DNA of 64,000 bases, taken from NCBI GenBank assembly GCA_964589355.1, contig CAZPTG010000001.1, forward strand, positions 31 through 64,030, read 5' to 3'. Below the pieces are notes generated by a model. The model ran no database searches. It was not told the DNA's origin and worked only from the letters and a program-made list of their open reading frames with translations. Origin of the DNA: an uncultured Spirochaetaceae bacterium (GTDB lineage: Bacteria; Spirochaetota; Spirochaetia; Sphaerochaetales; Sphaerochaetaceae). The stretch's first letter is position 1. Each line of letters opens with the position of its first letter. Shown piece after piece: positions 2,813 through 39,152 of this stretch. Position numbers and translations under genes: made by a program.

Positions 2813-4861
2813 TTAGGCCGTATGTTTGTAATAATTGGTACTTACTTCTTTTATATTGTTCTTACCAAAAACTTTAAAGATATTATTTTTATGTAATATG
2901 ATACAATAGGGACCTGACTGAGTCACATTTAGATAATTAGGATCTGTCACAATATTCTTTTTTGTTACATAAAAATCTATATCAGGATTTAATAGTAAAT
3001 TCTTTACTAAGTGCTTATCCTTATATATAACATCCTTGCTGCCAATTTCTACAGAGCAAATTGTGTTATTGAATGTTTTTGTATTTACTGCTTCGTCTAC
3101 ATTAATACGGTTAAAAAAGTTTCTGTTTGTTACACTGTTTAAAGTCATGTATTGACTAAATATTCTTTTGATACCCATGTTTTTAGACCGTAGTGGACTC
3201 TTTACCCCATACCTTGTTGACAGTATTTTATTAATATCACTGATAACGCCTTCTAAATTAGGATCAGAGCTTACCTTTTTTGCTTTAATATTAGCATCAG
3301 TGTTAAAACTTACCTCATTATCCAGATCTTCTGTTTTAGAAGTATTTATTATTTTTGTAAGAGTTGCTATTTTATCTTTATCTACATTAAGACTATTCTT
3401 ATTTGAAATATCCGACTCATCAATATACTTAACTTCATCATCTTCTACTTTTCTTTTTACCCATTTATCTTTCTCAGGGGTATTAAATGGACCATAAGAT
3501 AATGTAACTTTGACTTTGTTATCCTTGGTGAGTACAAAACCTCTCCTGTTTAGAGAGTCTAAATAAGGGAGTCTATAGTGCTTAATATTAGGTGCGTACA
3601 AGTCTTCTAATACAAATTTGGCATCATACCCAGTATCAGATATCACAGAGCTGTGATGTATACCTATGAACCCTTTATCCTTAGCATATTTCCTAAGTAT
3701 TCTAGCACATGTCTCTGAAATAGAATATATTCTATCCATATATACCTTACCATCATCTGGTAACCATAGAATACTCCTAGCTAAGATTTTATTAGGTACT
3801 TTACTCTTTAAAACTAGCAACTTAATTCTATCAGGATTATAGGCATAAAAATTCAACTTACTATAATTAGAATAGCCGTTCATACAACTACCTGCTAATG
3901 ATCCGCCTTTTTCTTGAGCATTAATATTGGCACTTTCTACAACTCCTTCTGGCAATTTTTCTAAGAATAGATTATTATGCCTATTGTAATAAAATAATAT
4001 ATCATGACCTTCTACTATACTAACAGCTTTTTCTAGGTTAGTATTAGCAGAATCTGCCAAGTCCTTAACTTCTTGCACTATTTTTTCTACTACTGCACTA
4101 GGTACAGCACTGCCCATTATAGCTGTTATAGCTCTACCAAGCTTAATCTCTTTAAAATAGGGTTGATAATCAAGGTCCTCAGAAGACATTTTTATAACTT
4201 TTGCTATGTAGGTCCATATAGATTGTTGTTCTGAACGACAAATTATCCCATAGTATGTGGATATTGAAATTATCCCATAGTGTGTGGATATTGGGGGCAA
4301 TAGATCCTTATAGTTCTTTGGTATTGTAATCAGATCAGAATTATTTAGCAGAACCTCCACTGCACATCTCATATTAACTGGACCAATATGCCCACTCTCT
4401 TCTAATATCTGTATTATTGATTTCCCCAATAAAGCTCTAGTAAATATAAGAGCTTTCCCTTTATTGTCTATATGCAAACTTAAAGGTATTTCACTAAGTT
4501 TAGTTTCATTTACTGTATGGTCAGTTGTTATTTTATAGCCGTTGGAGAACGGCCTGCCTTTAAGGTATTTACTTACATCTATAGCCTCTGAAGTAATCTT
4601 TATTCTTCTTTCTAACCTATTAATACTATCTAAATCTAAATCAGATTTAACTTCTTTAGCTTTAAATTCTGATAAGTCCTGTTTATCTTTTGTAAGCTTA
4701 TTAGCTAATGAAGATATCACCCTGTTAAAAAGATCTACAGCTGAATTAGAAATATATGTATATGTGTGGCCTTGATCTAGTACAGCTGTTCTGGTTGCTG
4801 TTATAGCATTTAAGTGCTCTAGACTAATTGCTATTTCCTCTTTTTTGATACATTTATCCAT
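2813..4861 (-). CDS. hypothetical protein (682 aa)
   Basis: Long ORF on the leftward coding strand that abuts its neighbours. No motif recognised. It carries the in-frame tandem duplication at 4240-4293. Confidence 0.65.
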   Translation of the reverse strand: MDKCIKKEEIAISLEHLNAITATRTAVLDQGHTYTYISNSAVDLFNRVISSLANKLTKDKQDLSEFKAKEVKSDLDLDSINRLERRIKITSEAIDVSKYLKGRPFSNGYKITTDHTVNETKLSEIPLSLHIDNKGKALIFTRALLGKSIIQILEESGHIGPVNMRCAVEVLLNNSDLITIPKNYKDLLPPISTHYGIISISTYYGIICRSEQQSIWTYIAKVIKMSSEDLDYQPYFKEIKLGRAITAIMGSAVPSAVVEKIVQEVKDLADSANTNLEKAVSIVEGHDILFYYNRHNNLFLEKLPEGVVESANINAQEKGGSLAGSCMNGYSNYSKLNFYAYNPDRIKLLVLKSKVPNKILARSILWLPDDGKVYMDRIYSISETCARILRKYAKDKGFIGIHHSSVISDTGYDAKFVLEDLYAPNIKHYRLPYLDSLNRRGFVLTKDNKVKVTLSYGPFNTPEKDKWVKRKVEDDEVKYIDESDISNKNSLNVDKDKIATLTKIINTSKTEDLDNEVSFNTDANIKAKKVSSDPNLEGVISDINKILSTRYGVKSPLRSKNMGIKRIFSQYMTLNSVTNRNFFNRINVDEAVNTKTFNNTICSVEIGSKDVIYKDKHLVKNLLLNPDIDFYVTKKNIVTDPNYLNVTQSGPYCIILHKNNIFKVFGKNNIKEVSTNYYKHTA
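4240..4293. repeat. 27-bp tandem duplication x2 (one mismatch) inside the 682-aa ORF
   Basis: aaattatcccatagtatgtggatattg is followed directly by aaattatcccatagtgtgtggatattg. In-frame, giving ISTHYGIIS / ISTYYGIIC in the protein. Confidence 0.9.
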
Positions 4862-21088: not shown

Positions 21089-21613
21089 CTACCTTGGCCA
21101 GGTTTCAGACATTATAGCCAAGGCTTTTATTTTATCGAAGGTGAACCCGGTATAGCTGGGACCTCTTGCCATGATCTGTTTAGCTCTTACATTGTTAGCT
21201 GGTTCTATTTTACCACTATCAAGTAGTAGTAAATGGGGTATAAGTTCACCTTGTTCAGTTACTTCCGTCAGTTCTACATACCCAGTTTCAATATCTTTAT
21301 TGTGTAAGGGCACTAGCTCTGATGGTTTTTCTTGAAATGTTTTATTGGTTAGCTTAATCATTCTTACCATCAAGGATCTACTTCTCCTTGTTAAGCTTTT
21401 TCTTCTAGCATCTATCTCGCTTATGAGTAAACTCATATTGTTGATAGTACTAGAAGCTCTTGTAAACTTGGAGTTTTGACAGGTTGAACGTATTAAATAA
21501 ATGTCGTTAAATAACCGTAACCTTAAGCTCCTGAGCTCGTTGATACGCACGCTTACGAGTATTAACTCTATTGCGTCGTGTGAAGTGTTTCTTTCTTTTT
21601 TACTTTTTGACAT
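21089..21613 (-). CDS. hypothetical protein (174 aa)
   Basis: ORF on the coding strand. Confidence 0.55.
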   Translation of the reverse strand: MSKSKKERNTSHDAIELILVSVRINELRSLRLRLFNDIYLIRSTCQNSKFTRASSTINNMSLLISEIDARRKSLTRRSRSLMVRMIKLTNKTFQEKPSELVPLHNKDIETGYVELTEVTEQGELIPHLLLLDSGKIEPANNVRAKQIMARGPSYTGFTFDKIKALAIMSETWPR

Positions 21614-21628
21614 AATATGTTACTTAGG

Positions 21629-22687
21629 TTAAACTTTATTTCTTTGATATTTGCCTGATACAGGGTTGTTATTGAAATACCACTTCATCTCCCTTTCTTT
21701 GTTGTGAATGATATCGTAGATAGGTCTCCACTTCTCTACATCACTTAAGAAGCATACAAACCTATTGCTATGCCATAGCTCATTAGGCTTATTCTTATGT
21801 CTTTTGGCATAGCCCTCTTCTACATCTACACCATTACAATTATGTACCGTGTATCTAGCATAAACATAGGTATTTACAGGTATCTTTTCTGTGCCCCATT
21901 TATTAGCTTTTTCAACTAAAGGAGCTATTTCCTGATCGCTTAGTTGTATAGCATTGAGTAATTCGGGCTTAGGCAATTTACCATGCTTTTTAGTGTACTT
22001 TTTCCTGAATTCTCTTCTCTTTTTATTAAGCAGCTGAGTTTTTAGTTCAGCTACCCTTCTGGCTGTTTTAGCTTCTTTTAAAGAACTTGAGGGTTCTAAT
22101 ATATTGAATTGCTCTTTAACTAAGTTGATAAACCTGTAAGCTCTTTCTGCAGGATATTCAACATCCCTAAAATGGAACTTAGTTAATAATGTAACCAATT
22201 CGCCCCTTAGACCTTTTTCAAGTAGTTCTATAATTTCAGAACGTAAGCTAGTTACAAATGGAGGTTCACTTTCACGTATTTGCCTTTTTTTGCTAAGTAC
22301 AGCTGCTTCTTCTTCCCGTAATTTCATACCTACTTTTTTGCTAATGAATTCAGCTTCATCATTAACTATTTCAGCATTAGGGATTTCACTTTTACCAGCT
22401 TCTTTAGCTTTACTTACCTCACTTTTAATATTAGCTGGATTAAGAGCTACAAAATTCTTTTTAATCCATTCAGGACCAAATCCTAGGGTATTGCTTAACC
22501 CCTCTTGAATAAGCAATTCAGCGTAGCTTTCAGCTTCAGCAGCTTTCAGTTTGTACATATGCATGGCACTCATATCACTTTGGTTGTTGCCATGATTCCA
22601 ATACCTGTCTTCAAAACGGACAGCCATTTTGTAAAAGTATTCGGCTGCATCAAATAATTCCGATGCAGAAGCATTGTATTTGTTCAT
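21629..22687 (-). CDS. hypothetical protein (352 aa)
   Basis: Long ORF on the coding strand. Confidence 0.65.
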   Translation of the reverse strand: MNKYNASASELFDAAEYFYKMAVRFEDRYWNHGNNQSDMSAMHMYKLKAAEAESYAELLIQEGLSNTLGFGPEWIKKNFVALNPANIKSEVSKAKEAGKSEIPNAEIVNDEAEFISKKVGMKLREEEAAVLSKKRQIRESEPPFVTSLRSEIIELLEKGLRGELVTLLTKFHFRDVEYPAERAYRFINLVKEQFNILEPSSSLKEAKTARRVAELKTQLLNKKRREFRKKYTKKHGKLPKPELLNAIQLSDQEIAPLVEKANKWGTEKIPVNTYVYARYTVHNCNGVDVEEGYAKRHKNKPNELWHSNRFVCFLSDVEKWRPIYDIIHNKEREMKWYFNNNPVSGKYQRNKV

Positions 22688-22708
22688 TTTAATCGGTTTT
22701 TTCAGGGT

Positions 22709-23257
22709 TTATAGAACTTTCTTAATCACCATATCGATTTTATTTCGATCTTCAGGTGAATTTGAAAAGACAAACTTGACAATTCTGTCTCTACCCCTGT
22801 CGTCTTTTCTTGCTTCACTGATTCTTTCCCTGAATTCCTTCATACCAAACTTACTAAGCGTATTAATGATATTATACGCCTCTTCTGGACTTAACTTATC
22901 ATCTTCTTCAAACAAGTGCTTATGAGAAGCTTTCGTTATAGTTGCAACTTCGTTGATACACTTATCTCTGAAAAGTCTACCTTTACGACTATCTTTGGAT
23001 TCAGTCAAAGAAGCAGTTAGTGTATCAAATAAGTATTTCCTTAAGTACTTTTTGTCTCCTTCAAAGCTGGATGATGCTTTCTTCTTTTCCATATTCTCAA
23101 TTTCTCCGATTAAGGCGGAAAGTGTTGAAAGCTGTTCTCGCAGGGAATTTGCTTCCCTTTTGTTGCCTCTTTTTTTAGCCCTAAAGAAGTCTTTCCGTAA
23201 CTCCAAATATTGATCTTTAAGATCTTGGAGTAGTGTCTTCCTAAATAAGTTATCCAT
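22709..23257 (-). CDS. hypothetical protein (182 aa)
   Basis: ORF on the coding strand. Basic and helical. Confidence 0.6.
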   Translation of the reverse strand: MDNLFRKTLLQDLKDQYLELRKDFFRAKKRGNKREANSLREQLSTLSALIGEIENMEKKKASSSFEGDKKYLRKYLFDTLTASLTESKDSRKGRLFRDKCINEVATITKASHKHLFEEDDKLSPEEAYNIINTLSKFGMKEFRERISEARKDDRGRDRIVKFVFSNSPEDRNKIDMVIKKVL

Positions 23258-23282
23258 GTTTGGTTAGTTTTAATGGTTAAAG

Positions 23283-23308
23283 AAAAAGGGGGACTATTAA
23301 TGTCCCCC
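23283..23308 (-). terminator. intrinsic terminator closing the intron-containing ORF-free region
   Basis: The minus strand reads GGGGGAC-ATTAATA-GTCCCCC followed by TTTTTCT. Confidence 0.75.
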
Positions 23309-23782
23309 AAGACTCACCGATTAAGCAGCTGCTCTAAGCAATTGCATCATTTCAGATTCGCCATTTAAAAATTACTTACACCTTTCGTGCTAACTGGGTA
23401 CCATAACGTCAAAACCAATTAGGCCCCATATTTTTAACGTTGAAAACAAAGGGCAGGTTACACCCCAGGGGCTACCTGAGTTACCAACCTCCGTGAAATT
23501 ATAATATTTTCTCCTCACCTGCCCTACTGCTATCATTGGCAACGGGCTATTTTACTAGCCTGTATCCTATTTCCGATAATCGGATGTTTTTAGTATTAGC
23601 TTCTACCTTAAGAACATTTCTTAGATACTTTTGTATCTCCTTCTTACGTCTCTTTTTCTCCTTCCGTGGTAGTTTTAATGCTTTCATAATACAGTGTTTA
23701 GATAAGTGGAGCCTTCGGGACAATAGTTAAAACATCTGGAACAGTAACATTTCAAACCTGCGTCCGTATATTCAATAAAAAT
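23309..23782 (-). ncRNA. ORF-free, GC-enriched structured segment between the LAGLIDADG gene and the terminator
   Basis: No credible ORF. Has a long-range 8-bp pairing, GGGCAGGT...ACCTGCCC, and several hairpins. Could be the distal part of the group I intron, or a 3' exon RNA. Confidence 0.35.
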
Positions 23783-24178
23783 ATGGGTTGGGAATATATT
23801 ACAGGTTTCTTTGATGCTGACGGCACGATAACATTTTTACGTTTACATAAGAATTGCGAAAGATCACCTGTTATTTCTTTTAGTAATAACGAATATGACC
23901 TACTTGTGGAAATAGAAAAATTTATTAAACTTGAAACAGGTCATAATGGATTCATTTGTACTAAAAAATCAGGTGATTTTACTAATTATGAGCTGAGGTA
24001 TACTTATTTACCTAAATGTATAAACGTACTATCTTACATAAATTCCAGACATCCCAAGAAGCGTAGACGTATAGATATGATACTTAACGAATTGAAGAGT
24101 ATAACACCTCGTAATGGTAAATATACAAAAGAAACCTTATCAAAACGTCAAGAATTTACATCTCGCTTCTTCTCCTAA
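23783..24178 (+). CDS. LAGLIDADG homing endonuclease (single-motif type)
   Basis: 131 aa. The N-terminal ITGFFDADGTITF is a LAGLIDADG motif. It is the only plus-strand gene in the leftward module, and its stop lies inside the P9 hairpin of the antisense group I core. Confidence 0.8.
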   Translation: MGWEYITGFFDADGTITFLRLHKNCERSPVISFSNNEYDLLVEIEKFIKLETGHNGFICTKKSGDFTNYELRYTYLPKCINVLSYINSRHPKKRRRIDMILNELKSITPRNGKYTKETLSKRQEFTSRFFS

Positions 24179-24395
24179 TTTCTCAGGAGTATCGGACTAT
24201 CTCTTCACTTTTAAGTGCTGGGCGCTCTAGCCTGTATTCAGGTAGTCTCTGCACCTTCCCTCTTAAGGGCTTGGCTCAGGGTTGCCTTATCATTGTGACT
24301 TAGGTTTCCCTGAATTCACCCAGTTTAACTTCGACCTTTTGATCGAACCCGAGTCCGCTAAAGCCCTAGCTAGCAGCGTAAGTAAATCGTTTGTT
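24172..24395 (-). ncRNA. group I intron catalytic core (IC3-like)
   Basis: The minus strand carries P = AATTCAGGGAAAC, Q = AACCCTGAGC (P4 CAGGG/CCCTG), R = GGTGCAGAGACTAC and S = AAGAGATAGTCC (P7 GACTA/TAGTC). It also has P3 CTGGGTG/CGCCCAG, P8 CACTT-AA-AAGTG, P2 TTCGATC-AAAA-GGTCGAA and P9 CTCCT-GAGAAATT-AGGAG, all in canonical order. Confidence 0.8.
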
Positions 24396-24402
24396 AGTTA
24401 AG

Positions 24403-24846
24403 TTAGGTTATAAGGTTACTATATCCCTTAGTCTTTAACATTTCCCATTCTCTATAACATAGTCCTCTTTTGTGTGGATCCTTTATTTTACTTACCGGCA
24501 TTAAGTATCCCTCATGGACTGGTAGTACTATTTTACGACCGTAAAAGAATAAAGAATCTAAGCTATCTTCTTTATATGCTTCAGATAGCTCTAATACACT
24601 CTTAAGAAAATGTGTCTTGTTATAGAGTATGACTGCTCTTGGTACTTCTATTAAATGGTGTTCTTCACCAAATAAGCTACCAAAAGCATTGCTAACATTA
24701 GAGAAATGTAGCATCTTTTCTTTGTAGCTACACGCTACCTTACTTATTGAAGGTACATATTCTCCAATAAAGTCGGGCATGTCAATAATTACTAAACTGC
24801 CCTTACTTATTTTGTCTTTGCTTTGCTTTGAGTTAGATTTCCACAT
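24403..24846 (-). CDS. hypothetical protein (147 aa); possible 5' exon of the intron-bearing gene
   Basis: ORF on the coding strand whose stop lies a few nt upstream of the intron core. Confidence 0.5.
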   Translation of the reverse strand: MWKSNSKQSKDKISKGSLVIIDMPDFIGEYVPSISKVACSYKEKMLHFSNVSNAFGSLFGEEHHLIEVPRAVILYNKTHFLKSVLELSEAYKEDSLDSLFFYGRKIVLPVHEGYLMPVSKIKDPHKRGLCYREWEMLKTKGYSNLIT

Positions 24847-24849
24847 GTC

Positions 24850-25107
24850 TTAGCTCCTTTTAACGCTTAATAATCTTACTGAGTTAGATTTCCATCGGAT
24901 TTTCTTAAAAAATACTTCAGGCAGTTTCTTTTCGATCTCTTTGAATAGCTCGCTACTTATATTGAGATCCAAAGGCTCTTTCTTATTACTACTGTCGGCG
25001 TCTTTTCCCATGCTATCTTTTGAGGATAAGACCCTAAATGTCTTTTTCTTCCCATTTAACAGTAAGACTAAGATGTCTCCCCTGTTAAGGGCATAACGTT
25101 TTTCCAT
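24850..25107 (-). CDS. hypothetical protein (85 aa)
   Basis: ORF on the coding strand. Confidence 0.5.
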   Translation of the reverse strand: MEKRYALNRGDILVLLLNGKKKTFRVLSSKDSMGKDADSSNKKEPLDLNISSELFKEIEKKLPEVFFKKIRWKSNSVRLLSVKRS

Positions 25108-25110
25108 ACT

Positions 25111-25278
25111 TTAGGATATTATTAAAGTTAATATTAGTATTACTACTGTAGCTAAAATTGCTACAATACCTACTACTTTTCTCGTTGAGGCTTCCTCCTT
25201 AGTCCCGTAAGGTAATAAGGCATAGCCCATTAAACTTAGGAATGCCATTGTTACAAGGAATGCAATTAATGCTGACAT
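25111..25278 (-). CDS. small membrane protein (55 aa)
   Basis: The start was moved to Met15 (25278) because the longer ORF would overlap the tRNA-like gene and the AAACCACAAAA box lies 9 nt upstream. Two hydrophobic segments. Confidence 0.5.
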   Translation of the reverse strand: MSALIAFLVTMAFLSLMGYALLPYGTKEEASTRKVVGIVAILATVVILILTLIIS

Positions 25279-25313
25279 AATATTTAATTTTTGTGGTTTG
25301 TAAATAAAAATAG

Positions 25314-25506
25314 TAGCCATACTGGGACTCGAACCCAGATCTCCCTATAATTTATTAGGGGCTCTTCCGCTACTCGGACTCTGCGTGAGGTGGCCTAGAA
25401 TGGATTGGATTTTAAGTCCAAATAAGTTCCATTCTCCTCTGCATATCCTTGGGGGTTACAGCCGATTCCTAGGAACTTGAGTGTAACACTTTTGAGCTAT
25501 ATGGCT
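25314..25506 (-). tRNA. 193-nt tRNA-like gene with a ~115-nt insertion in the D-loop region
   Basis: The 5' part is AGCCATA-TA-GCTC-A. The 3' part is GTAGCGGAA-GAGC-CCCTA-ATAAATTA-TAGGG-AGAT-CTGGG-TTCGAGT-CCCAG-TATGGCT-A. The acceptor is 7/7 and the T arm is canonical, with an 8-nt anticodon-type loop. The insert contains AGAATGGA...TTGGA-CTTAAAA-TCCAA...TCCATTCT. Confidence 0.45.
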
Positions 25507-25511
25507 AACAG

Positions 25512-25631
25512 CAGTCCGTGGAGGAGTCGAACCTCCGTTTCCGTGGGGCAAACCATGGTTGATACTCTAACATAGCTAGTGCATGTATAAAGTATTAACA
25601 GCTCGGCGTCCTACCACTAGACGAACGGACC
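25512..25631 (-). tRNA. 120-nt tRNA-like gene (Asn-type anticodon loop CUGUUAA) with a ~46-nt insertion after the loop
   Basis: The 5' part is GGTCCGT-TC-GTCT-AGTGGTA-GGAC-G-CCGAG-CTGTTAA. After the insert it continues (C)CACGG-AAAC-GGAGG-TTCGACT-CCTCC-ACGGACT-G. The anticodon stem pairs only 4/5. Confidence 0.45.
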
Positions 25632-25751
25632 ATAAGTTAGGGAGACCTGAAGTACGACTGCTGTATGGGCTGGTTACCACCGTGTCGTCGCCGATAGCCC
25701 TGATTGGGCTCCAAGATCTCTCTATATTTTTAACAATTTCATTTTTGTGGT

Positions 25752-25880
25752 TTATCTACAGAAAATCGCTAGTGCTATTAGTGCTATCCACATAATTGCT
25801 CCTAGTATGCATCCGTAGATATCTTGTCCATCATTAGGATCAAATTCTCTATCTTCGTCTCTTGATTGTTCCCAATCCAT
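25752..25880 (-). CDS. small membrane protein (42 aa)
   Basis: Own translation gives MDWEQSRDEDREFDPNDGQDIYGCILGAIMWIALIALAIFCR. Preceded by the AAACCACAAAA box at 8 nt. Below the ORF-track size cut-off. Confidence 0.45.
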   Translation of the reverse strand: MDWEQSRDEDREFDPNDGQDIYGCILGAIMWIALIALAIFCR

Positions 25881-25898
25881 ATTTTTAATTTTGTGGTT

Positions 25899-26519
25899 TT
25901 ATTTAATAGCTATCAGTACTCTGGCTGATTGCCTATCTTCCTCTTTGTTAGATGTATTAAACTTGTGTTCATCTATTAACTCTTCTATCTCTGTTGAGCC
26001 CCCTAGATGTACAAATACTTGTCCCTTGCGCATCTTCCTGAATAACTCATCAAATGTTTCTCTTGGTTCACCTGTGATATTAAAAGCATAAATAATGTCA
26101 GGATCTAACCTGAGTATTAAGTCTACTCTTTCCTGTACATATCCATTGTATATTTCTAGATGAGGCCTCATTATTGTAGCTATCTTACAAAGATTCCAAT
26201 CAGCTTCTATTCCATAAGTTTTCTTAAATATTATGCTGAATAAGTCTACAAGTAATCCTGTTCCACATCCTAAGTCAATTATGCTTTTACTTAATAAATC
26301 ACTTAAATTCCAACCAACTGTTAGTTGTAACTCTTTGTATATGTCAAATAGATCAAACCACCTTGTAGACATATACCCTGTAACATACCTGGCTCTACTT
26401 ACAAGCGCCATAGGTCCGTCACCTATCGGCTGTCTTAAGCTCATTTCGTACTGACAGTTTTCCTTATATATGAGAAGCTGTCTAAGTATGTCTATTTCTT
26501 TGTTAAAGTTTTTTTTCAT
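25899..26519 (-). CDS. class I SAM-dependent methyltransferase
   Basis: 206 aa. Motif I is IIDLGCGTGLLVDL. Confidence 0.75.
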   Translation of the reverse strand: MKKNFNKEIDILRQLLIYKENCQYEMSLRQPIGDGPMALVSRARYVTGYMSTRWFDLFDIYKELQLTVGWNLSDLLSKSIIDLGCGTGLLVDLFSIIFKKTYGIEADWNLCKIATIMRPHLEIYNGYVQERVDLILRLDPDIIYAFNITGEPRETFDELFRKMRKGQVFVHLGGSTEIEELIDEHKFNTSNKEEDRQSARVLIAIK

Positions 26520-35445: not shown

Positions 35446-36012
35446 ATGGAATTATTTGATATAGAGAATGATAGGTTAGTACTCAATCCCACAAATCTTT
35501 ATATACCACCTTTTAAAAAGATATGGGATAGGGACAAATCTAAAGGTAAGAGTAAAGCATACAATGAGATTGCTTATGTTACATTTCTTTGTAATATGTC
35601 TAGGAAGAATCCATACAATGCTTACTCTGATTTTGATAAAGATAAAAAGATAAGGGAAGATCTATTTGGTAGTCCCGATTGGGAGCCTAATAACTTAGTG
35701 CAAGAGGCTATAGAGAAGTATAATGAGATGCAGAAAACTACTAACTCTAGACTGCTGCAATCTGCTAAAAACGGTGCGCAGAAGCTAGCTAATTATTTTG
35801 ATAGGGTAGATTTTGAAGCTATAGACAATTATGGTAAACCTAAGTATTCAGCTAGGGACTATGCATTTAATCTTAAAGAAGTAGGCAATATAGTTAAGTC
35901 TTTGACACAGTTAGAGAAGCAAGTAGAGAAAGAACAGATGGAATTAAGTGAAGCTAGGGGTGGAAGTGAAATTGGTATATACGAGATACCTGATAAACAA
36001 TCATCAGAATAA
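35446..36012 (+). CDS. possible terminase small subunit (188 aa)
   Basis: Position only: it lies directly upstream of TerL and is stop/start-coupled to it. Confidence 0.35.
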   Translation: MELFDIENDRLVLNPTNLYIPPFKKIWDRDKSKGKSKAYNEIAYVTFLCNMSRKNPYNAYSDFDKDKKIREDLFGSPDWEPNNLVQEAIEKYNEMQKTTNSRLLQSAKNGAQKLANYFDRVDFEAIDNYGKPKYSARDYAFNLKEVGNIVKSLTQLEKQVEKEQMELSEARGGSEIGIYEIPDKQSSE

Positions 36013-39000
36013 TGGAAGATACATACGAAGTAAGGGTTAGAAAATTTAAAAATACTGATAAATTTAGGCCAGCTGCTAAGTATTTTGAAGAAAACAGCAT
36101 GTATACTGCAGCTCCCCCAGGTACTACAGAATATAAGCGTTATTGGGACAGAGAAATGAAACGTAGTACCGATGGCTTTACTGCTGAAGATGGTGATAGT
36201 ATTACAGGCTATCACTATTTTTATTTAAATTATTGCCCCATAATGAAAGTAGTTGAGAAAGAAGTTCCTGATGGTAGTGGTGGTACTAAGGTTATACCTA
36301 CTAGGGACAGGGGATTTCCAAATTTCTGGGACTATGATAAGGAGTATTTTGACGCAGTAGAAGAAGCAGAAAATAGGGGTAGTCATATGGCTGTGCTTAA
36401 AAAGCGTAGGTCAGGTTATTCGTATAAAGTTGCTGCAATGTTGAATAGAAATTTCTTCCTTATACCCGAATCGATATCTTATGCTATAGCCTCAGAAAAG
36501 GAATTTTTAACGAAAGATGGTGTACTGTCCAAGGCTTGGGATATGATGAGTTGGATAGATGATAATACAGCTTGGACTAAGAAGAGACAAGCAATAGACA
36601 CCAATATGCATAGAAGGGCTTCTTTCTATACTACTAAGGGAGGCAGTAAAATAGAGAAGGGATATAAATCTGAAATTATAGGTGTTACTCTAAAGAATGA
36701 TCCTCAAAAAGCTAGAGGTAAAGCAGCTAAACTAATTGTCTGGGAAGAATCAGGTAAATTTCCAAATTTGCTTCAATCGTGGCAGATAGCTCAACCTTCG
36801 GTAGAACAGGATGGTGTGGCTTTTGGTACAATGATTTCTTTTGGTACGGGAGGTTGTTTAACAGCTGGGAACAAAGTATTTAATAATAAAGGTGAATTAA
36901 TAAATATAGAAGATTTAGTTAAAAATGAAGGTATAATTGGTTTTGATGAAATGTCTGGTAATTATAGTAAAGAAGATATAGCTTATCAACAACCATATAC
37001 TGAAAAAGAAACTATTAAATTAACTACTGATTCTGGTAGAACAATAGAGTGCAGTACGGATCATCCTATTTATTCTCCAATATTTAAAGATAAAGGATGG
37101 AATAAATATCACAAAAGGCAGAATAGAAGAATAATAGGACATGACTGGAAAGAAGCTGGTAATATAGCTGAAGGTGATTTAATATCAGTTATAGACAAAT
37201 TACCAATATTTGGCGATAAAGAGGTAGAAGACGCTAGACTATTAGGCATGCTAGTAGGGGATGGTACTTATGGTAATAGTACTCCTAAATTTGCTAATTG
37301 TGACAAAGAGCTTTGGGATTATATAGATGATAATTATTCCAATGCTGTATATTTAGAGAGGGAAAATAAAGATAAGAGAATATATAAAGAAGCTGGTATA
37401 TTAAACTTTAATGATACTCTTAGATATCATGGTATATTTGGACAAACTAAATCTGATAAAAGATTGCCAAAAGATGTACATAAATGGAATAAAAAATCTA
37501 TTTCAGAGTTTGTTGCTGGATTGTATGATGCTGATGGGTATATAAGTTTTAGAGTAAATAATAAAAGAAAAGGTAAATATTTATCTGAAATAAGTTTGAG
37601 CCAAAATAATTTAGAGATATTAAAAGAGTTACAACTAATATTACAAAAATTTGGCATACATGGTAAATTAAGAACCAGGCAACCTAGAGATAATAATCCA
37701 AAAGATGTCAATGCTTGGCATGAATTTAATATCAGTGATTGTAGAAGTTTAACTTTGTTTGTTGAAAATTTTAATTTACTTATAAAAAATAAGCAAGAAA
37801 AATTAAATAATATTTGGGATTATAATAAAGACAAAAAACCCCAAAGAAAATATAATGGACTAAGGCATGAGAAAGTTATATCTATTAAACATACTGGTAT
37901 TAATCCTGTTTATAATTTAACAGCTTCAAATACTAATACTTATTTAGGTAATGGTGTAATTACGCATAATACAGAAGAGGCAGACTATTCTAGCTTAAAA
38001 GAGTTGTTTTATAAACCTAGGGCTTATAATGTTCTACCTATAAGGAATGTATGGGATGATGGTGCTTATGAAACAGCATGTGGCTTTTTTGTACCTAACT
38101 ATATGAATATGCAAGGCTTTATGAATGAGGATGGTAATTCCTCAATAGATGAAGCTATAGAAGAATCTAATAGGCAACGTAAGGAGGTAGAAGAGCATTC
38201 TGGTGATAAGAATTCTGTAGATAGGTATATTGCGGAACACCCAAATACGCCTAGAGAAGCTACCTTACAGTTGACTGGTAATATATTCCCTAAGAAAGAA
38301 CTACAGGCACAGAAAGCTAGGATAATGGGGGATAAGAAGCTGAAAAACTATAAACAGGTGGGTAGTCTTGAGTATGATGGGGCTGGTAGACTAAGGTGGA
38401 ACCAGCTATCTGGAGCTAAAGATATAGAGAAGTTTCCTTTAGATAAAAATGATAGCAAAGAAGGGGCTATAGTTATATGGGAGCATCCTGTTGAAGATCC
38501 TCCGTATGGTCTATATATAGCTGGTATTGACCCTTATGACCATGATGATTCTGGTACTTCTTCTTTAGGGAGCACTATTATATATAAAAGATTTCAGTCA
38601 TTTGAACAGTACTATGATATAATAGTAGCTGAATATACAGGTAGACCAGATACGGCTAATGAGTATTATGAAAATGTCTACAGGCTACTTAAATACTATA
38701 ATGCAAGGGCTTTATACGAGAATGAGCGTAAAGGTATGTACGCTTATTTTGCTAATAAGGGTGTTGATTATATGTTAGCTAATCAGCCTGATATTATACA
38801 TGACATTGTGCAAGTATCTAAGGTACAACGTAAGAAGGGTATTCATATGACTAAAGGTATAAAAGATTGGGCTGAACGAGAAATACGAGATTGGCTTAAT
38901 GAAGAATATTCACCAGGCCATAAGAATTTGGAGAAAATATTCTCATTACCATTGTTAGATGAGTTAATATCTTATAACGATAAGGGCAACTTTGACCGAG

Positions 39001-39152
39001 TAATTTCATTAATGATGGTAATGTTGTATAAAAAAGAATTACATAATGTACATGTTAAGGATAAGAAAAGGAGTGAGAAAACTATTGATAAGTTCTTTCA
39101 AACTAGGTTTTTCACTGAAGATAGAAAATATAATTTTAACCGGTTAAGATAA
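36012..39152 (+). CDS. terL: terminase large subunit, intein-containing precursor (1046 aa; 674-aa extein)
   Basis: P-loop-like KKRRSGYSYK, Walker B-like LIVWEESGKF and nuclease-type IAGIDPYDHDD. Followed by the portal-size gene. Interrupted by a Hint/LAGLIDADG block. Confidence 0.85.
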   Translation: MEDTYEVRVRKFKNTDKFRPAAKYFEENSMYTAAPPGTTEYKRYWDREMKRSTDGFTAEDGDSITGYHYFYLNYCPIMKVVEKEVPDGSGGTKVIPTRDRGFPNFWDYDKEYFDAVEEAENRGSHMAVLKKRRSGYSYKVAAMLNRNFFLIPESISYAIASEKEFLTKDGVLSKAWDMMSWIDDNTAWTKKRQAIDTNMHRRASFYTTKGGSKIEKGYKSEIIGVTLKNDPQKARGKAAKLIVWEESGKFPNLLQSWQIAQPSVEQDGVAFGTMISFGTGGCLTAGNKVFNNKGELINIEDLVKNEGIIGFDEMSGNYSKEDIAYQQPYTEKETIKLTTDSGRTIECSTDHPIYSPIFKDKGWNKYHKRQNRRIIGHDWKEAGNIAEGDLISVIDKLPIFGDKEVEDARLLGMLVGDGTYGNSTPKFANCDKELWDYIDDNYSNAVYLERENKDKRIYKEAGILNFNDTLRYHGIFGQTKSDKRLPKDVHKWNKKSISEFVAGLYDADGYISFRVNNKRKGKYLSEISLSQNNLEILKELQLILQKFGIHGKLRTRQPRDNNPKDVNAWHEFNISDCRSLTLFVENFNLLIKNKQEKLNNIWDYNKDKKPQRKYNGLRHEKVISIKHTGINPVYNLTASNTNTYLGNGVITHNTEEADYSSLKELFYKPRAYNVLPIRNVWDDGAYETACGFFVPNYMNMQGFMNEDGNSSIDEAIEESNRQRKEVEEHSGDKNSVDRYIAEHPNTPREATLQLTGNIFPKKELQAQKARIMGDKKLKNYKQVGSLEYDGAGRLRWNQLSGAKDIEKFPLDKNDSKEGAIVIWEHPVEDPPYGLYIAGIDPYDHDDSGTSSLGSTIIYKRFQSFEQYYDIIVAEYTGRPDTANEYYENVYRLLKYYNARALYENERKGMYAYFANKGVDYMLANQPDIIHDIVQVSKVQRKKGIHMTKGIKDWAEREIRDWLNEEYSPGHKNLEKIFSLPLLDELISYNDKGNFDRVISLMMVMLYKKELHNVHVKDKKRSEKTIDKFFQTRFFTEDRKYNFNRLR
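36855..37970 (+). mobile_element. 372-aa class 1 intein with LAGLIDADG homing endonuclease domain, inserted in TerL
   Basis: The N-extein FGTGG is followed by CLTAGNKVF. The intein ends GNGVITHN and is followed by a +1 Thr (TEEADY). Two dodecapeptide motifs are present, LLGMLVGDGTY and FVAGLYDADGYI. Confidence 0.9.

Follow-up and report, generated by a model that had tools for sequence, protein, structure and literature searches.

Which gene does a group I ribozyme interrupt when no exons can be recognized beside it? The question is raised by the minus strand of a 64,000-nucleotide (nt) stretch of DNA (contig CAZPTG010000001.1; the whole stretch is referred to as the window). There, a first-pass annotation made from the letters alone placed a group I core with a LAGLIDADG gene on the opposite strand, found no tRNA halves and left the host gene unknown. 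Our analysis places the tRNA-like halves of a transfer-messenger RNA (tmRNA) on either side of the intron, and we are confident, short of certainty, that minus-strand nucleotides 24385–23283 constitute one tmRNA (ssrA) gene of a crAss-like phage, both circularly permuted and interrupted by the group I intron. Introns in tmRNA genes and permuted tmRNAs are each well known; what appears to be new is their combination in one gene, for which a 2025 catalogue of 97,179 tmRNAs, sorted into Standard, Permuted, Intron and tag-less versions, holds no class (PMC11915505).

The interrupted gene and its intron

The host gene was recognized because motifs of a tmRNA in a related locus recur in the window. 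Among homologues of the endonuclease with 46–73% identity, one is encoded on contig L015, where it follows a group I core that shares its strand. A standard tmRNA surrounds that intron, with 5' GGGGCUG, a D-loop analogue, the tag AFASVELAVAA followed by a stop, T-stem sequences AGGGG-UU before and CGAAU-CCCCU after the intron, and the 3' acceptor strand CAGCUCC, then A. The parts assigned in the window are as follows.

24342–24385, minus: 5' exon, the 5' part of the acceptor piece, with a provisional 5' end (coordinates; RNAcofold; ARAGORN 3' tRNA domain)
24385–24376, minus: helix strand UUACUUACGC, in the 5' exon
24374–24357, minus: P2 strand GCUAGCUAGGGCUUUAGC, in the 5' exon
24352–24348, minus: T-stem 5' strand UCGGG, after GGAC, in the 5' exon
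24347–24342, minus: T-loop nt 1–6, UUCGAU, in the 5' exon
23707–23720, minus: 3' exon (within the ARAGORN 3' tRNA domain)
23720, minus: T-loop nt 7, U, in the 3' exon
23719–23715, minus: T-stem 3' strand CCCGA, in the 3' exon
23714–23708, minus: acceptor 3' strand AGGCUCC, in the 3' exon
23707, minus: discriminator A, in the 3' exon
23428–23706, minus: intervening spacer of 279 nt that separates the 3' acceptor strand from the 5' one (aligns poorly with the spacer of related locus L018)
23283–23427, minus: tmRNA coding piece (ARAGORN, cofold, terminator scan)
23427–23421, minus: 5' acceptor strand GGGGCCU, giving G3·U70, in the coding piece
23420–23408, minus: D-loop analogue AAUUGGUUUUGAC, in the coding piece
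23407–23389, minus: other P2 strand, in the coding piece
23381–23372, minus: helix strand GUGUAAGUAA, in the coding piece
23362–23321, minus: tag frame GGC GAA ... GCA GCU GCU UAA, encoding GESEMMQLLRAAA and a stop (ARAGORN)
23308–23283, minus: terminator (terminator scan)

What is described here and below of sequence anatomy, program calls and conservation was observed directly. Removal of nucleotides 24341–23721 rebuilds a 5-bp T stem and a 7-nt T loop (UCGGG-UUCGAU joined to U-CCCGA), and the joined exons run from ...GGAC-UCGGG-UUCGAU to U-CCCGA-AGGCUCC-A, with the intron at T-loop internucleotide position 7. As in the tmRNA of E. coli, the T stem is preceded by a GGAC motif. The acceptor strands form a 7-bp stem (GGGGCCU/AGGCUCC) which, with G3·U70 and discriminator A73, carries the alanine identity set; CCA is not encoded, the bases after A23707 being CUU. 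When the sequence was spliced and un-permuted in silico, ARAGORN reported a tmRNA with the tag GESEMMQLLRAAA in 20/20 constructs.

On the raw sequence, neither ARAGORN nor Rfam reported a tmRNA or tRNA at the tmRNA locus. The gene is missed because the intron, the permutation and the long spacer each defeat the finders. An Rfam search of 22500–26000 at E values up to 5 gave only the intron, tRNA-like matches and noise, with no sign that the sequence downstream of the intron is another known RNA. At the same E value the permuted-tmRNA model RF04321 was unmatched in the raw region, where the intron interrupts the modelled domain. Folding of 23283–23790 was uninformative (z = -1.8). The region is 100% identical in five contigs from different samples and is therefore no assembly chimera.

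These assignments also resolve the 470 nt of ORF-free sequence (ORF, open reading frame) that the first-pass annotation described beyond the endonuclease gene. It is a composite of intron tail (23782–23721), 3' exon (23720–23707), spacer (23706–23428) and coding piece (23427–23283), and the strong terminator said to close it was indeed found by the scan at 23308–23283.

The ribozyme was described correctly in most respects. Minus-strand nucleotides 24172–24466 match Rfam RF00028 at 97.3 bits (E 7e-24), against a curated cut-off of 50 bits; the covariance search proposed in the first-pass annotation thus scored above threshold, and the complete group I ribozyme stands. P3 to P9 occur in canonical order, and the covariance-model alignment bears out the earlier assignments of P3, P4, P6, P7, P8 and P9. 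The hairpin TTCGATC-AAAA-GGTCGAA (24347–24330), by contrast, had been named P2 and is P1. The intron has no P2; only GUUAAA (24329–24324) separates P1 from P3. Hand searches for a P1 upstream of the supposed P2 were fruitless because that hairpin is P1 itself. The Rfam 5' boundary at 24466 is an artefact as well, in that the P1/P2 of the model were aligned to unrelated upstream sequence and the true P1 was taken as an insertion; P1/P2 are mis-set likewise in a close relative, L022.

23721–24341, minus: group I intron, 621 nt (RF00028, 97.3 bits; U·G rule, terminal-G rule, 7-nt T-loop rebuild)
24330–24347, minus: P1, UUCGAU, then C-AAAA-G-GUCGAA after the 5' splice site (read from sequence)
24172–24323, minus: ribozyme core (Rfam alignment and coordinate table)
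24323–24317 / 24224–18, minus: P3 (Rfam alignment)
24312–24258, minus: P4-P5-P6 (Rfam alignment)
24252–42 / 24202–24194, minus: P7 (Rfam alignment)
24242–24231, minus: P7.1-like hairpin (coordinate table)
24217–24206, minus: P8 (Rfam alignment)
24189–24172, minus: P9 (Rfam alignment)
23721–23782, minus: intron 3' tail, ending ...AACUAUUG (blocks conserved in L018 and L022)
23783–24178, plus: predicted single-motif LAGLIDADG homing-endonuclease gene, 131 aa, motif GFFDADGT (Pfam, PHROG, PDB profile)

Three features converge on splice sites between U24342 and C24341 and between G23721 and U23720: the P1 wobble U24342·G24335 (U-1 being 24342), the terminal G (G23721) directly before the 3' exon, and the rebuilt T loop. 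The P1 guide GGUCGA pairs with UCGAU also in the position-7 relatives L022, L056, L027 and L035. Blocks of the 3' tail (UACG, GGUU, UGUUAC, UUCCA, UUUUAAC, AUUG) are kept in L018 and L022, and P9 shows a compensatory change in L018 (CUCUU/AAGAG vs CUCCU/AGGAG in the window). The intron is predicted to self-splice in a GTP-dependent manner.

The core strings had been likened to those of the cyanobacterial and plastid tRNA-Leu(UAA) IC3 intron. This holds for the core sequence (P4–P6, J6/7–P7), and both introns interrupt a tRNA-like fold. It does not hold for the architecture: the window intron lies in a tmRNA T loop rather than an anticodon loop, lacks P2, has a P7.1-like hairpin and carries an endonuclease gene. 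We regard the IC3 resemblance as core-sequence similarity only, and as a lead.

Gene order and the spacer

The 3' acceptor strand (23714–23708) is encoded upstream of the 5' strand (23427–23421) on the same strand of DNA, the order of a permuted gene. For the motif GGRGYYU the minus strand offers a single match within ∼1.9 kb of AGGCUCC, namely GGGGCCU 279 nt downstream; the next-nearest minus-strand match (GGRGYYT) is at 21525–21531. A 5' half in the standard position has no room, because ORF 24403–24846 ends only ∼60 nt from the T arm and the region immediately upstream is protein-coding.

Pairing between the pieces points the same way. RNAcofold joined the spliced acceptor piece and the coding piece by 35 intermolecular base pairs, with an interaction energy of -22 kcal/mol vs -8.3 ± 3.3 for shuffled acceptor pieces, and 0 of 200 shuffles were as strong. 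The helices comprise the 7-bp acceptor stem, a long P2 (23407–23389/24374–24357) and a 10-bp helix (23381–23372/24385–24376).

The spacer is 279 nt long, compared to 48–100 nt in relatives and 190 nt in L018, with which it aligns poorly; it is not conserved, and no repeats of it were found within the window. A terminator-like hairpin followed by a T run was detected inside it, at 23466–23450. These properties bear on the strongest competing explanation, a split gene, in which separate transcripts would be made of the acceptor piece (with the intron) and of the coding piece, and the same two-piece tmRNA would form with no excision of the spacer. The first transcript would end at the hairpin, close ahead of the coding piece, and the second would start from a promoter within the spacer. 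Both the position of the hairpin and the unusual length and poor conservation of the spacer fit such an arrangement. However, only ∼20 nt separate the hairpin from G23427, with no promoter match there in a scan that excludes crAss-like phage and Bacteroidota promoters, and known permuted tmRNA genes are transcribed as single precursors (PMC11915505). We therefore consider a split gene improbable, if still deserving of attention.

Within the spacer region (23390–23687, minus), a JGI prediction gives two small ORFs, a K/R-rich one of 46 aa (MKALKLPRKEKKRRKKEIQKYL...) and one of 48 aa. Neither has a significant Pfam or family match, nor is either conserved in the L018 spacer, and they are probably not genes.

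The endonuclease gene and related loci

The 131-aa protein encoded at 23783–24178 had been called a LAGLIDADG endonuclease antisense to the ribozyme, and the searches support this. The window protein itself matches PF00961 with E 4e-4 and 21.6 bits, slightly below the 23.1 cut-off, and a PHROG annotated 'endonuclease' with E 1.5e-5. Both PF00961 and PF14528 are matched by each of the five aligned homologues, with E values of 0.01 or lower (best 8e-6), and a profile of the homologues matches the LAGLIDADG enzyme I-PanMI in the PDB (E 7.8e-6). On this sequence evidence, membership in the LAGLIDADG homing-endonuclease family is very likely. The gene is placed after P9 and antisense to the ribozyme, with its stop codon (24176–24178) inside P9 (24189–24172), as had been noted. 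A sigma-70-like promoter match, weak in consensus, lies on the plus strand at 23744–23772, just upstream of the endonuclease ATG; conserved 3'-tail blocks overlap it, which is only suggestive.

We used an alignment of the endonucleases to scan metagenomes and obtained 57 loci, which were analyzed with a home-made HMM (hidden Markov model) and exon finder, backed by Rfam. In dozens of metagenome loci, homologues with 32–74% identity adjoin or sit in tmRNA introns. Most loci with a detectable ribozyme contain tmRNA T-loop introns, mostly in standard tmRNAs, and RF00023 matches abut the intron in seven (L056, L035, L027, L040, L069, L066, L037). The antisense orientation, which the first-pass annotation listed as an oddity, proves common: the gene is antisense and abuts P9 in about 20 of about 40 related loci with a detectable ribozyme. 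A rough neighbor-joining tree suggests that the orientation has switched at least two or three times.

Elsewhere the endonuclease gene is not in the intron at all. L027, L035, L044 and L045 have short introns (194–227 nt), with the gene free-standing just beyond the 3' end of the tmRNA. Together with Lacusarx, a Sphingobium phage that provided the only phage match to the endonuclease in blastn and tblastn searches of a phage database, these free-standing copies and the intron-resident ones look like stages in the making of a mobile intron. Introns at T-loop position 3 of standard tmRNAs, with a sense endonuclease gene after P9, were seen at L015 (7007–8150) and also at L016, L017, L026 and L019/L020. 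A tRNA-Thr(UGU) gene directly follows the L015 tmRNA. ARAGORN made no call on spliced L015 in any of 144 junction variants, despite its clear tmRNA motifs.

Three relatives bear on the window. In L018, whose endonuclease is 55% identical, a single strand shows the parts in the order seen in the window: P9, antisense endonuclease, ...CAUUG as the intron end, UCCCCU-CAGCUCC-A, spacer, coding piece. The coding piece contains GGGGCUG-ACUGGUUUUGAC, the tag GDYFGYAMTSSRRAA with its stop, and a hairpin. Its acceptor stem (GGGGCUG/CAGCUCC) differs from that of the window by compensatory changes, C6-G and U7-A having become U6-A and G7-C. L022, with a 74% identical endonuclease, shares P1, the intron (RF00028, 100.0 bits) and the 3' exon with the window; an ORF ends ∼40 nt upstream of its T arm, and the contig stops before any coding piece. 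L046 is one further permuted locus, with an intron of 100.9 bits (RF00028) at position 3 and a sense endonuclease. ARAGORN calls it 'Permuted' after removal of the intron alone, with the tag GKVITLNSFATSKMAA before the stop. The tag frames of L018 and L046 are intact and end in AA.

Multi-locus Rfam runs missed the intron in L046, L022 and L023, whereas single-region runs on the first two returned the scores given above. Rfam speed filters can evidently drop strong AT-rich introns, since single-region runs recover those missed.

Permuted tmRNAs without an intron were found in the viral contigs L138, L175, L230 and L194, at 51–69 bits for RF04321, above threshold. All four have a short coding piece and a Gly resume codon, and tRNA genes lie nearby in L175 and L230. 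L138 and spliced L022 share an identical T arm and acceptor strand, and for this reason we conclude that an unoccupied homing site exists in nature; no synteny was detected between L138 and the window. In L194, a Hatchet ribozyme (1624–1758, 92.3 bits) and a RAGATH-9 RNA (3162–3337, 147.2 bits) lie within ∼3 kb upstream of the permuted tmRNA. Exact and degenerate DNA patterns from the window locus had no matches among viral contigs, a P7' motif scan of viral and genome contigs returned only introns in other genes, and the pattern CAGGGAAACCTA...AAGGCAAYCCTGAGCCAAGCC matched nine viral-contig introns.

The relatives also speak to a second explanation, that the locus is a decaying, non-functional tmRNA remnant scrambled by recombination driven by the intron or the endonuclease. 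Missing pseudoknots PK2–PK4, an atypical tag, a long spacer and an intron without P2 would all suit a remnant. Yet the order is kept in the diverged L018 and L046, with compensatory acceptor-stem changes and intact tag frames; G3·U70 and the 35-bp pairing between the pieces are preserved; similar intron-less viral permuted tmRNAs pass the RF04321 threshold; and the ribozyme core scores like those of typical introns. We regard decay as quite unlikely.

Still less probable is an attP-type fragment, that is, a phage copy of the 3' end of a host ssrA gene used for integration, with the intron a passenger. Integration often takes place at tmRNA genes, whose 3' ends are carried by the integrating elements. 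Genomic islands in ssrA are also mentioned in the tmRNA catalogue (PMC11915505). In the window, by contrast, the set of tmRNA parts is complete, including 5' acceptor strand, D-loop analogue, P2 and tag, and the phage looks crAss-like.

The first-pass annotation had suggested that ORF 24403–24846 might be a 5' exon. The stop codon of this ORF precedes the 5' splice site by 61 nt, the only match of the ORF among 5.8 billion proteins was the ORF itself, and a search for relatives in viral contigs came back empty. Comparison with intron-less homologues, a further suggestion, had nothing to work on, the five contigs that carry the ORF being identical to the window, with no intron-less allele among them. 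That the intron interrupts a protein gene of this kind, or that the ribozyme is free-standing with no host gene, can be drawn from the proximity of the ORF end to the ribozyme and from the lack of a tmRNA or tRNA call by Rfam or ARAGORN on the raw sequence, but is scarcely credible given the position of the splice site beyond the ORF stop, an ORF without homologues, the absence of any minus-strand ORF resuming past the intron, flanks that rebuild a tmRNA T arm and acceptor stem, and relatives in Rfam-confirmed tmRNA genes (RF00023 abutting the intron at seven loci).

Several points count against our interpretation of the locus as one permuted, intron-containing tmRNA gene. As ARAGORN accepts T loops that are 2 nt off, its calls support the exons and cannot fix the exact junction, which is set by P1 together with the terminal G and by the T-loop rule. 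With the intron alone removed and the 279-nt spacer in place, ARAGORN makes no call; a native 'Permuted tmRNA' call appears once the spacer is 260 nt or less (19 nt trimmed), from which we take the length limit of the program to be the sole obstacle. The spacer hairpin at 23466–23450 could halt a single precursor before the coding piece. In L046 the pairing between the pieces is not significant (27/200 shuffles). The coding piece has no PK2–PK4 and its tag is atypical, while the intron is without a P2 and its P10 is weak. SmpB was not detected in the window with a crude, weak tblastn probe. Finally, splicing, processing by RNase P, the addition of CCA, charging and homing are predictions drawn from the sequence.

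Known systems, proposed maturation and phage context

A group I intron in the T-psi-C loop of a tmRNA has been described for Clostridium botulinum. The catalogue lists 883 intron-form tmRNAs, with T-loop position 7 as the main site, and reports two sites for endonuclease-gene insertions, many of them in the P7.1 region and others after P9; its table by phylum gives Permuted (alpha, beta, cyano) forms and Intron (positions 2, 3, 7, 8) forms in separate columns (PMC11915505). The window intron resembles the intron forms in its position 7, the U-1·G pair in P1, the terminal G and the P7.1 region, and in a LAGLIDADG gene inserted after P9, a reported site (PMC11915505). It differs from them in that the gene is permuted, permuted and intron forms being listed separately; in the antisense endonuclease, an orientation that is undiscussed in PMC11915505; in its host, a crAss-like phage and not a bacterium; and in the absence of an intron P2.

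Permuted tmRNAs occur in Alphaproteobacteria, some Betaproteobacteria, Cyanobacteria and mitochondria (RF01849–51, RF04321). Like them, the window gene runs from acceptor piece through spacer to coding piece, with the pieces joined by the acceptor stem and P2, and tRNA-processing enzymes are expected to act on it (PMC11915505). Unlike them, it has a 621-nt intron in the acceptor piece and a 279-nt spacer, its coding piece ends at a terminator right after the tag and lacks PK2–PK4, and its tag, like those of the intron-less phage relatives, starts with Gly. The intron-less phage relatives reach threshold only for RF04321, not for the alpha, beta and cyano models.

The ssrA gene of Lacusarx (NC_041927.1, locus 74324–75212) is likewise a phage permuted tmRNA (RF04321, 90.7 bits; alpha_tmRNA, 79.5 bits), and a homologue of the window endonuclease (34% identity) adjoins it. 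In contrast to the window gene, it is intron-less and of the alphaproteobacterial type, and the endonuclease is free-standing, upstream and on the same strand.

Free-standing endonucleases that target intron sites are known from the 'collaborative homing' of cyanophage psbA, and antisense endonuclease genes occur in nuclear rDNA group I introns. The relatives of the window show comparable arrangements, with the endonuclease outside an ORF-less intron or inside it in either orientation. In those systems the host genes and the endonuclease families are different ones; around the tmRNA gene, a single LAGLIDADG family shows every one of these arrangements. We found no paper on a tmRNA that is both permuted and intron-containing, and none on a tmRNA in crAss-like phages; coverage of the literature was incomplete, and a prior description of the combined form is possible.

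The anatomy suggests a route of maturation. A precursor would be transcribed and the ribozyme would splice at the two sites defined above. The acceptor stem and a P2-type pairing of ∼28 bp would then join both parts, RNase P would cut 5' of G23427, the 3' end would be trimmed after A23707 and CCA added, and the spacer would be removed in the course of maturation. Host alanyl-tRNA synthetase (AlaRS) could charge the two-piece tmRNA via G3·U70 and A73, and with host SmpB the tag (A)GESEMMQLLRAAA would be appended to stalled peptides. Because P1 uses T-loop bases, the T arm is expected to form only once splicing has occurred. Produced from an antisense transcript of its own, the endonuclease would cleave tmRNA T-loop DNA that lacks the intron (GGACTCGGGTTCGAT|TCCCGAAGGCTCC), spreading the intron.

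A broader proposal can be built on this route. The locus would represent a fourth, uncatalogued tmRNA gene form (permuted plus intron) within a minimal two-piece, Gly-resume lineage of crAss-like and other phages. Splicing would gate assembly, since RNase P and AlaRS need the T arm, which would exist only afterwards; transcription of the antisense endonuclease gene in the convergent direction could modulate splicing, and the phage might in this way time or re-route tagging. We offer the proposal tentatively, and think it unlikely to hold in full.

If the locus is one permuted, intron-containing tmRNA gene, as we believe, an apparent orphan ribozyme gains a host gene that is invisible to standard annotation, and a tmRNA is placed in a crAss-like phage. 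Both rearrangements of tmRNA genes would be compatible in one gene, and an obligatory order of maturation is implied, ribozyme splicing followed by tRNA-type processing. The related loci form a natural series in which the endonuclease is free-standing, intron-resident in sense or intron-resident in antisense, and the introns of this series are found at several T-loop subsites, in genes of the standard as well as the permuted form, providing a compact system for studying the assembly and movement of mobile group I introns. For tmRNA finders, the practical consequence is that intron and permutation should be permitted together, with spacers >260 nt.

Judged by its sequence, the window belongs to a crAss-like phage. 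Its major capsid protein shares 63% identity with those of uncultured crAss-like phages (e.g. cr118_1), and the terminase, portal and capsid proteins match PHROG families. Genes are arranged on two divergent arms, and the G+C content is ∼34%. Searches of the phage database with blastn and tblastn detected no close genome; only the intron core matched, to introns of Vibrio phages.

Two tRNA-like elements lie on the minus strand near the tmRNA gene. The first (25511–25631) is a tRNA-Asn(GUU)-like gene with an insertion of 49–51 nt just 3' of the anticodon; Rfam scores it as a tRNA at 44.6 bits with a 51-nt insert, and ARAGORN in intron mode reports a 49-nt intron at position 36/37. The insertion folds into a hairpin, and its length falls well below that of any group I intron. 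The second (25314–25506) matches the Rfam tRNA model with 30.4 bits (E 0.0013) and a 126-nt D-loop insertion; its 3' end overlaps the start codon of ORF 25111–25320, and ARAGORN made no call for this element.

A 15-nt direct repeat, TGGAAATCTAACTCA, occurs on the minus strand at 24894–24880 and 24843–24829, near the end of ORF 24850–25107 and at the start of ORF 24403–24846, and both copies encode WKSNS; it may be a recombination scar. The window also holds an intein with a LAGLIDADG domain of its own, in the large terminase gene (36012–39152, plus; 1046 aa), where residues 290–653 match Pfam Intein_splicing (42.3 bits) and residues 498–576 match LAGLIDADG_3 (51 bits).

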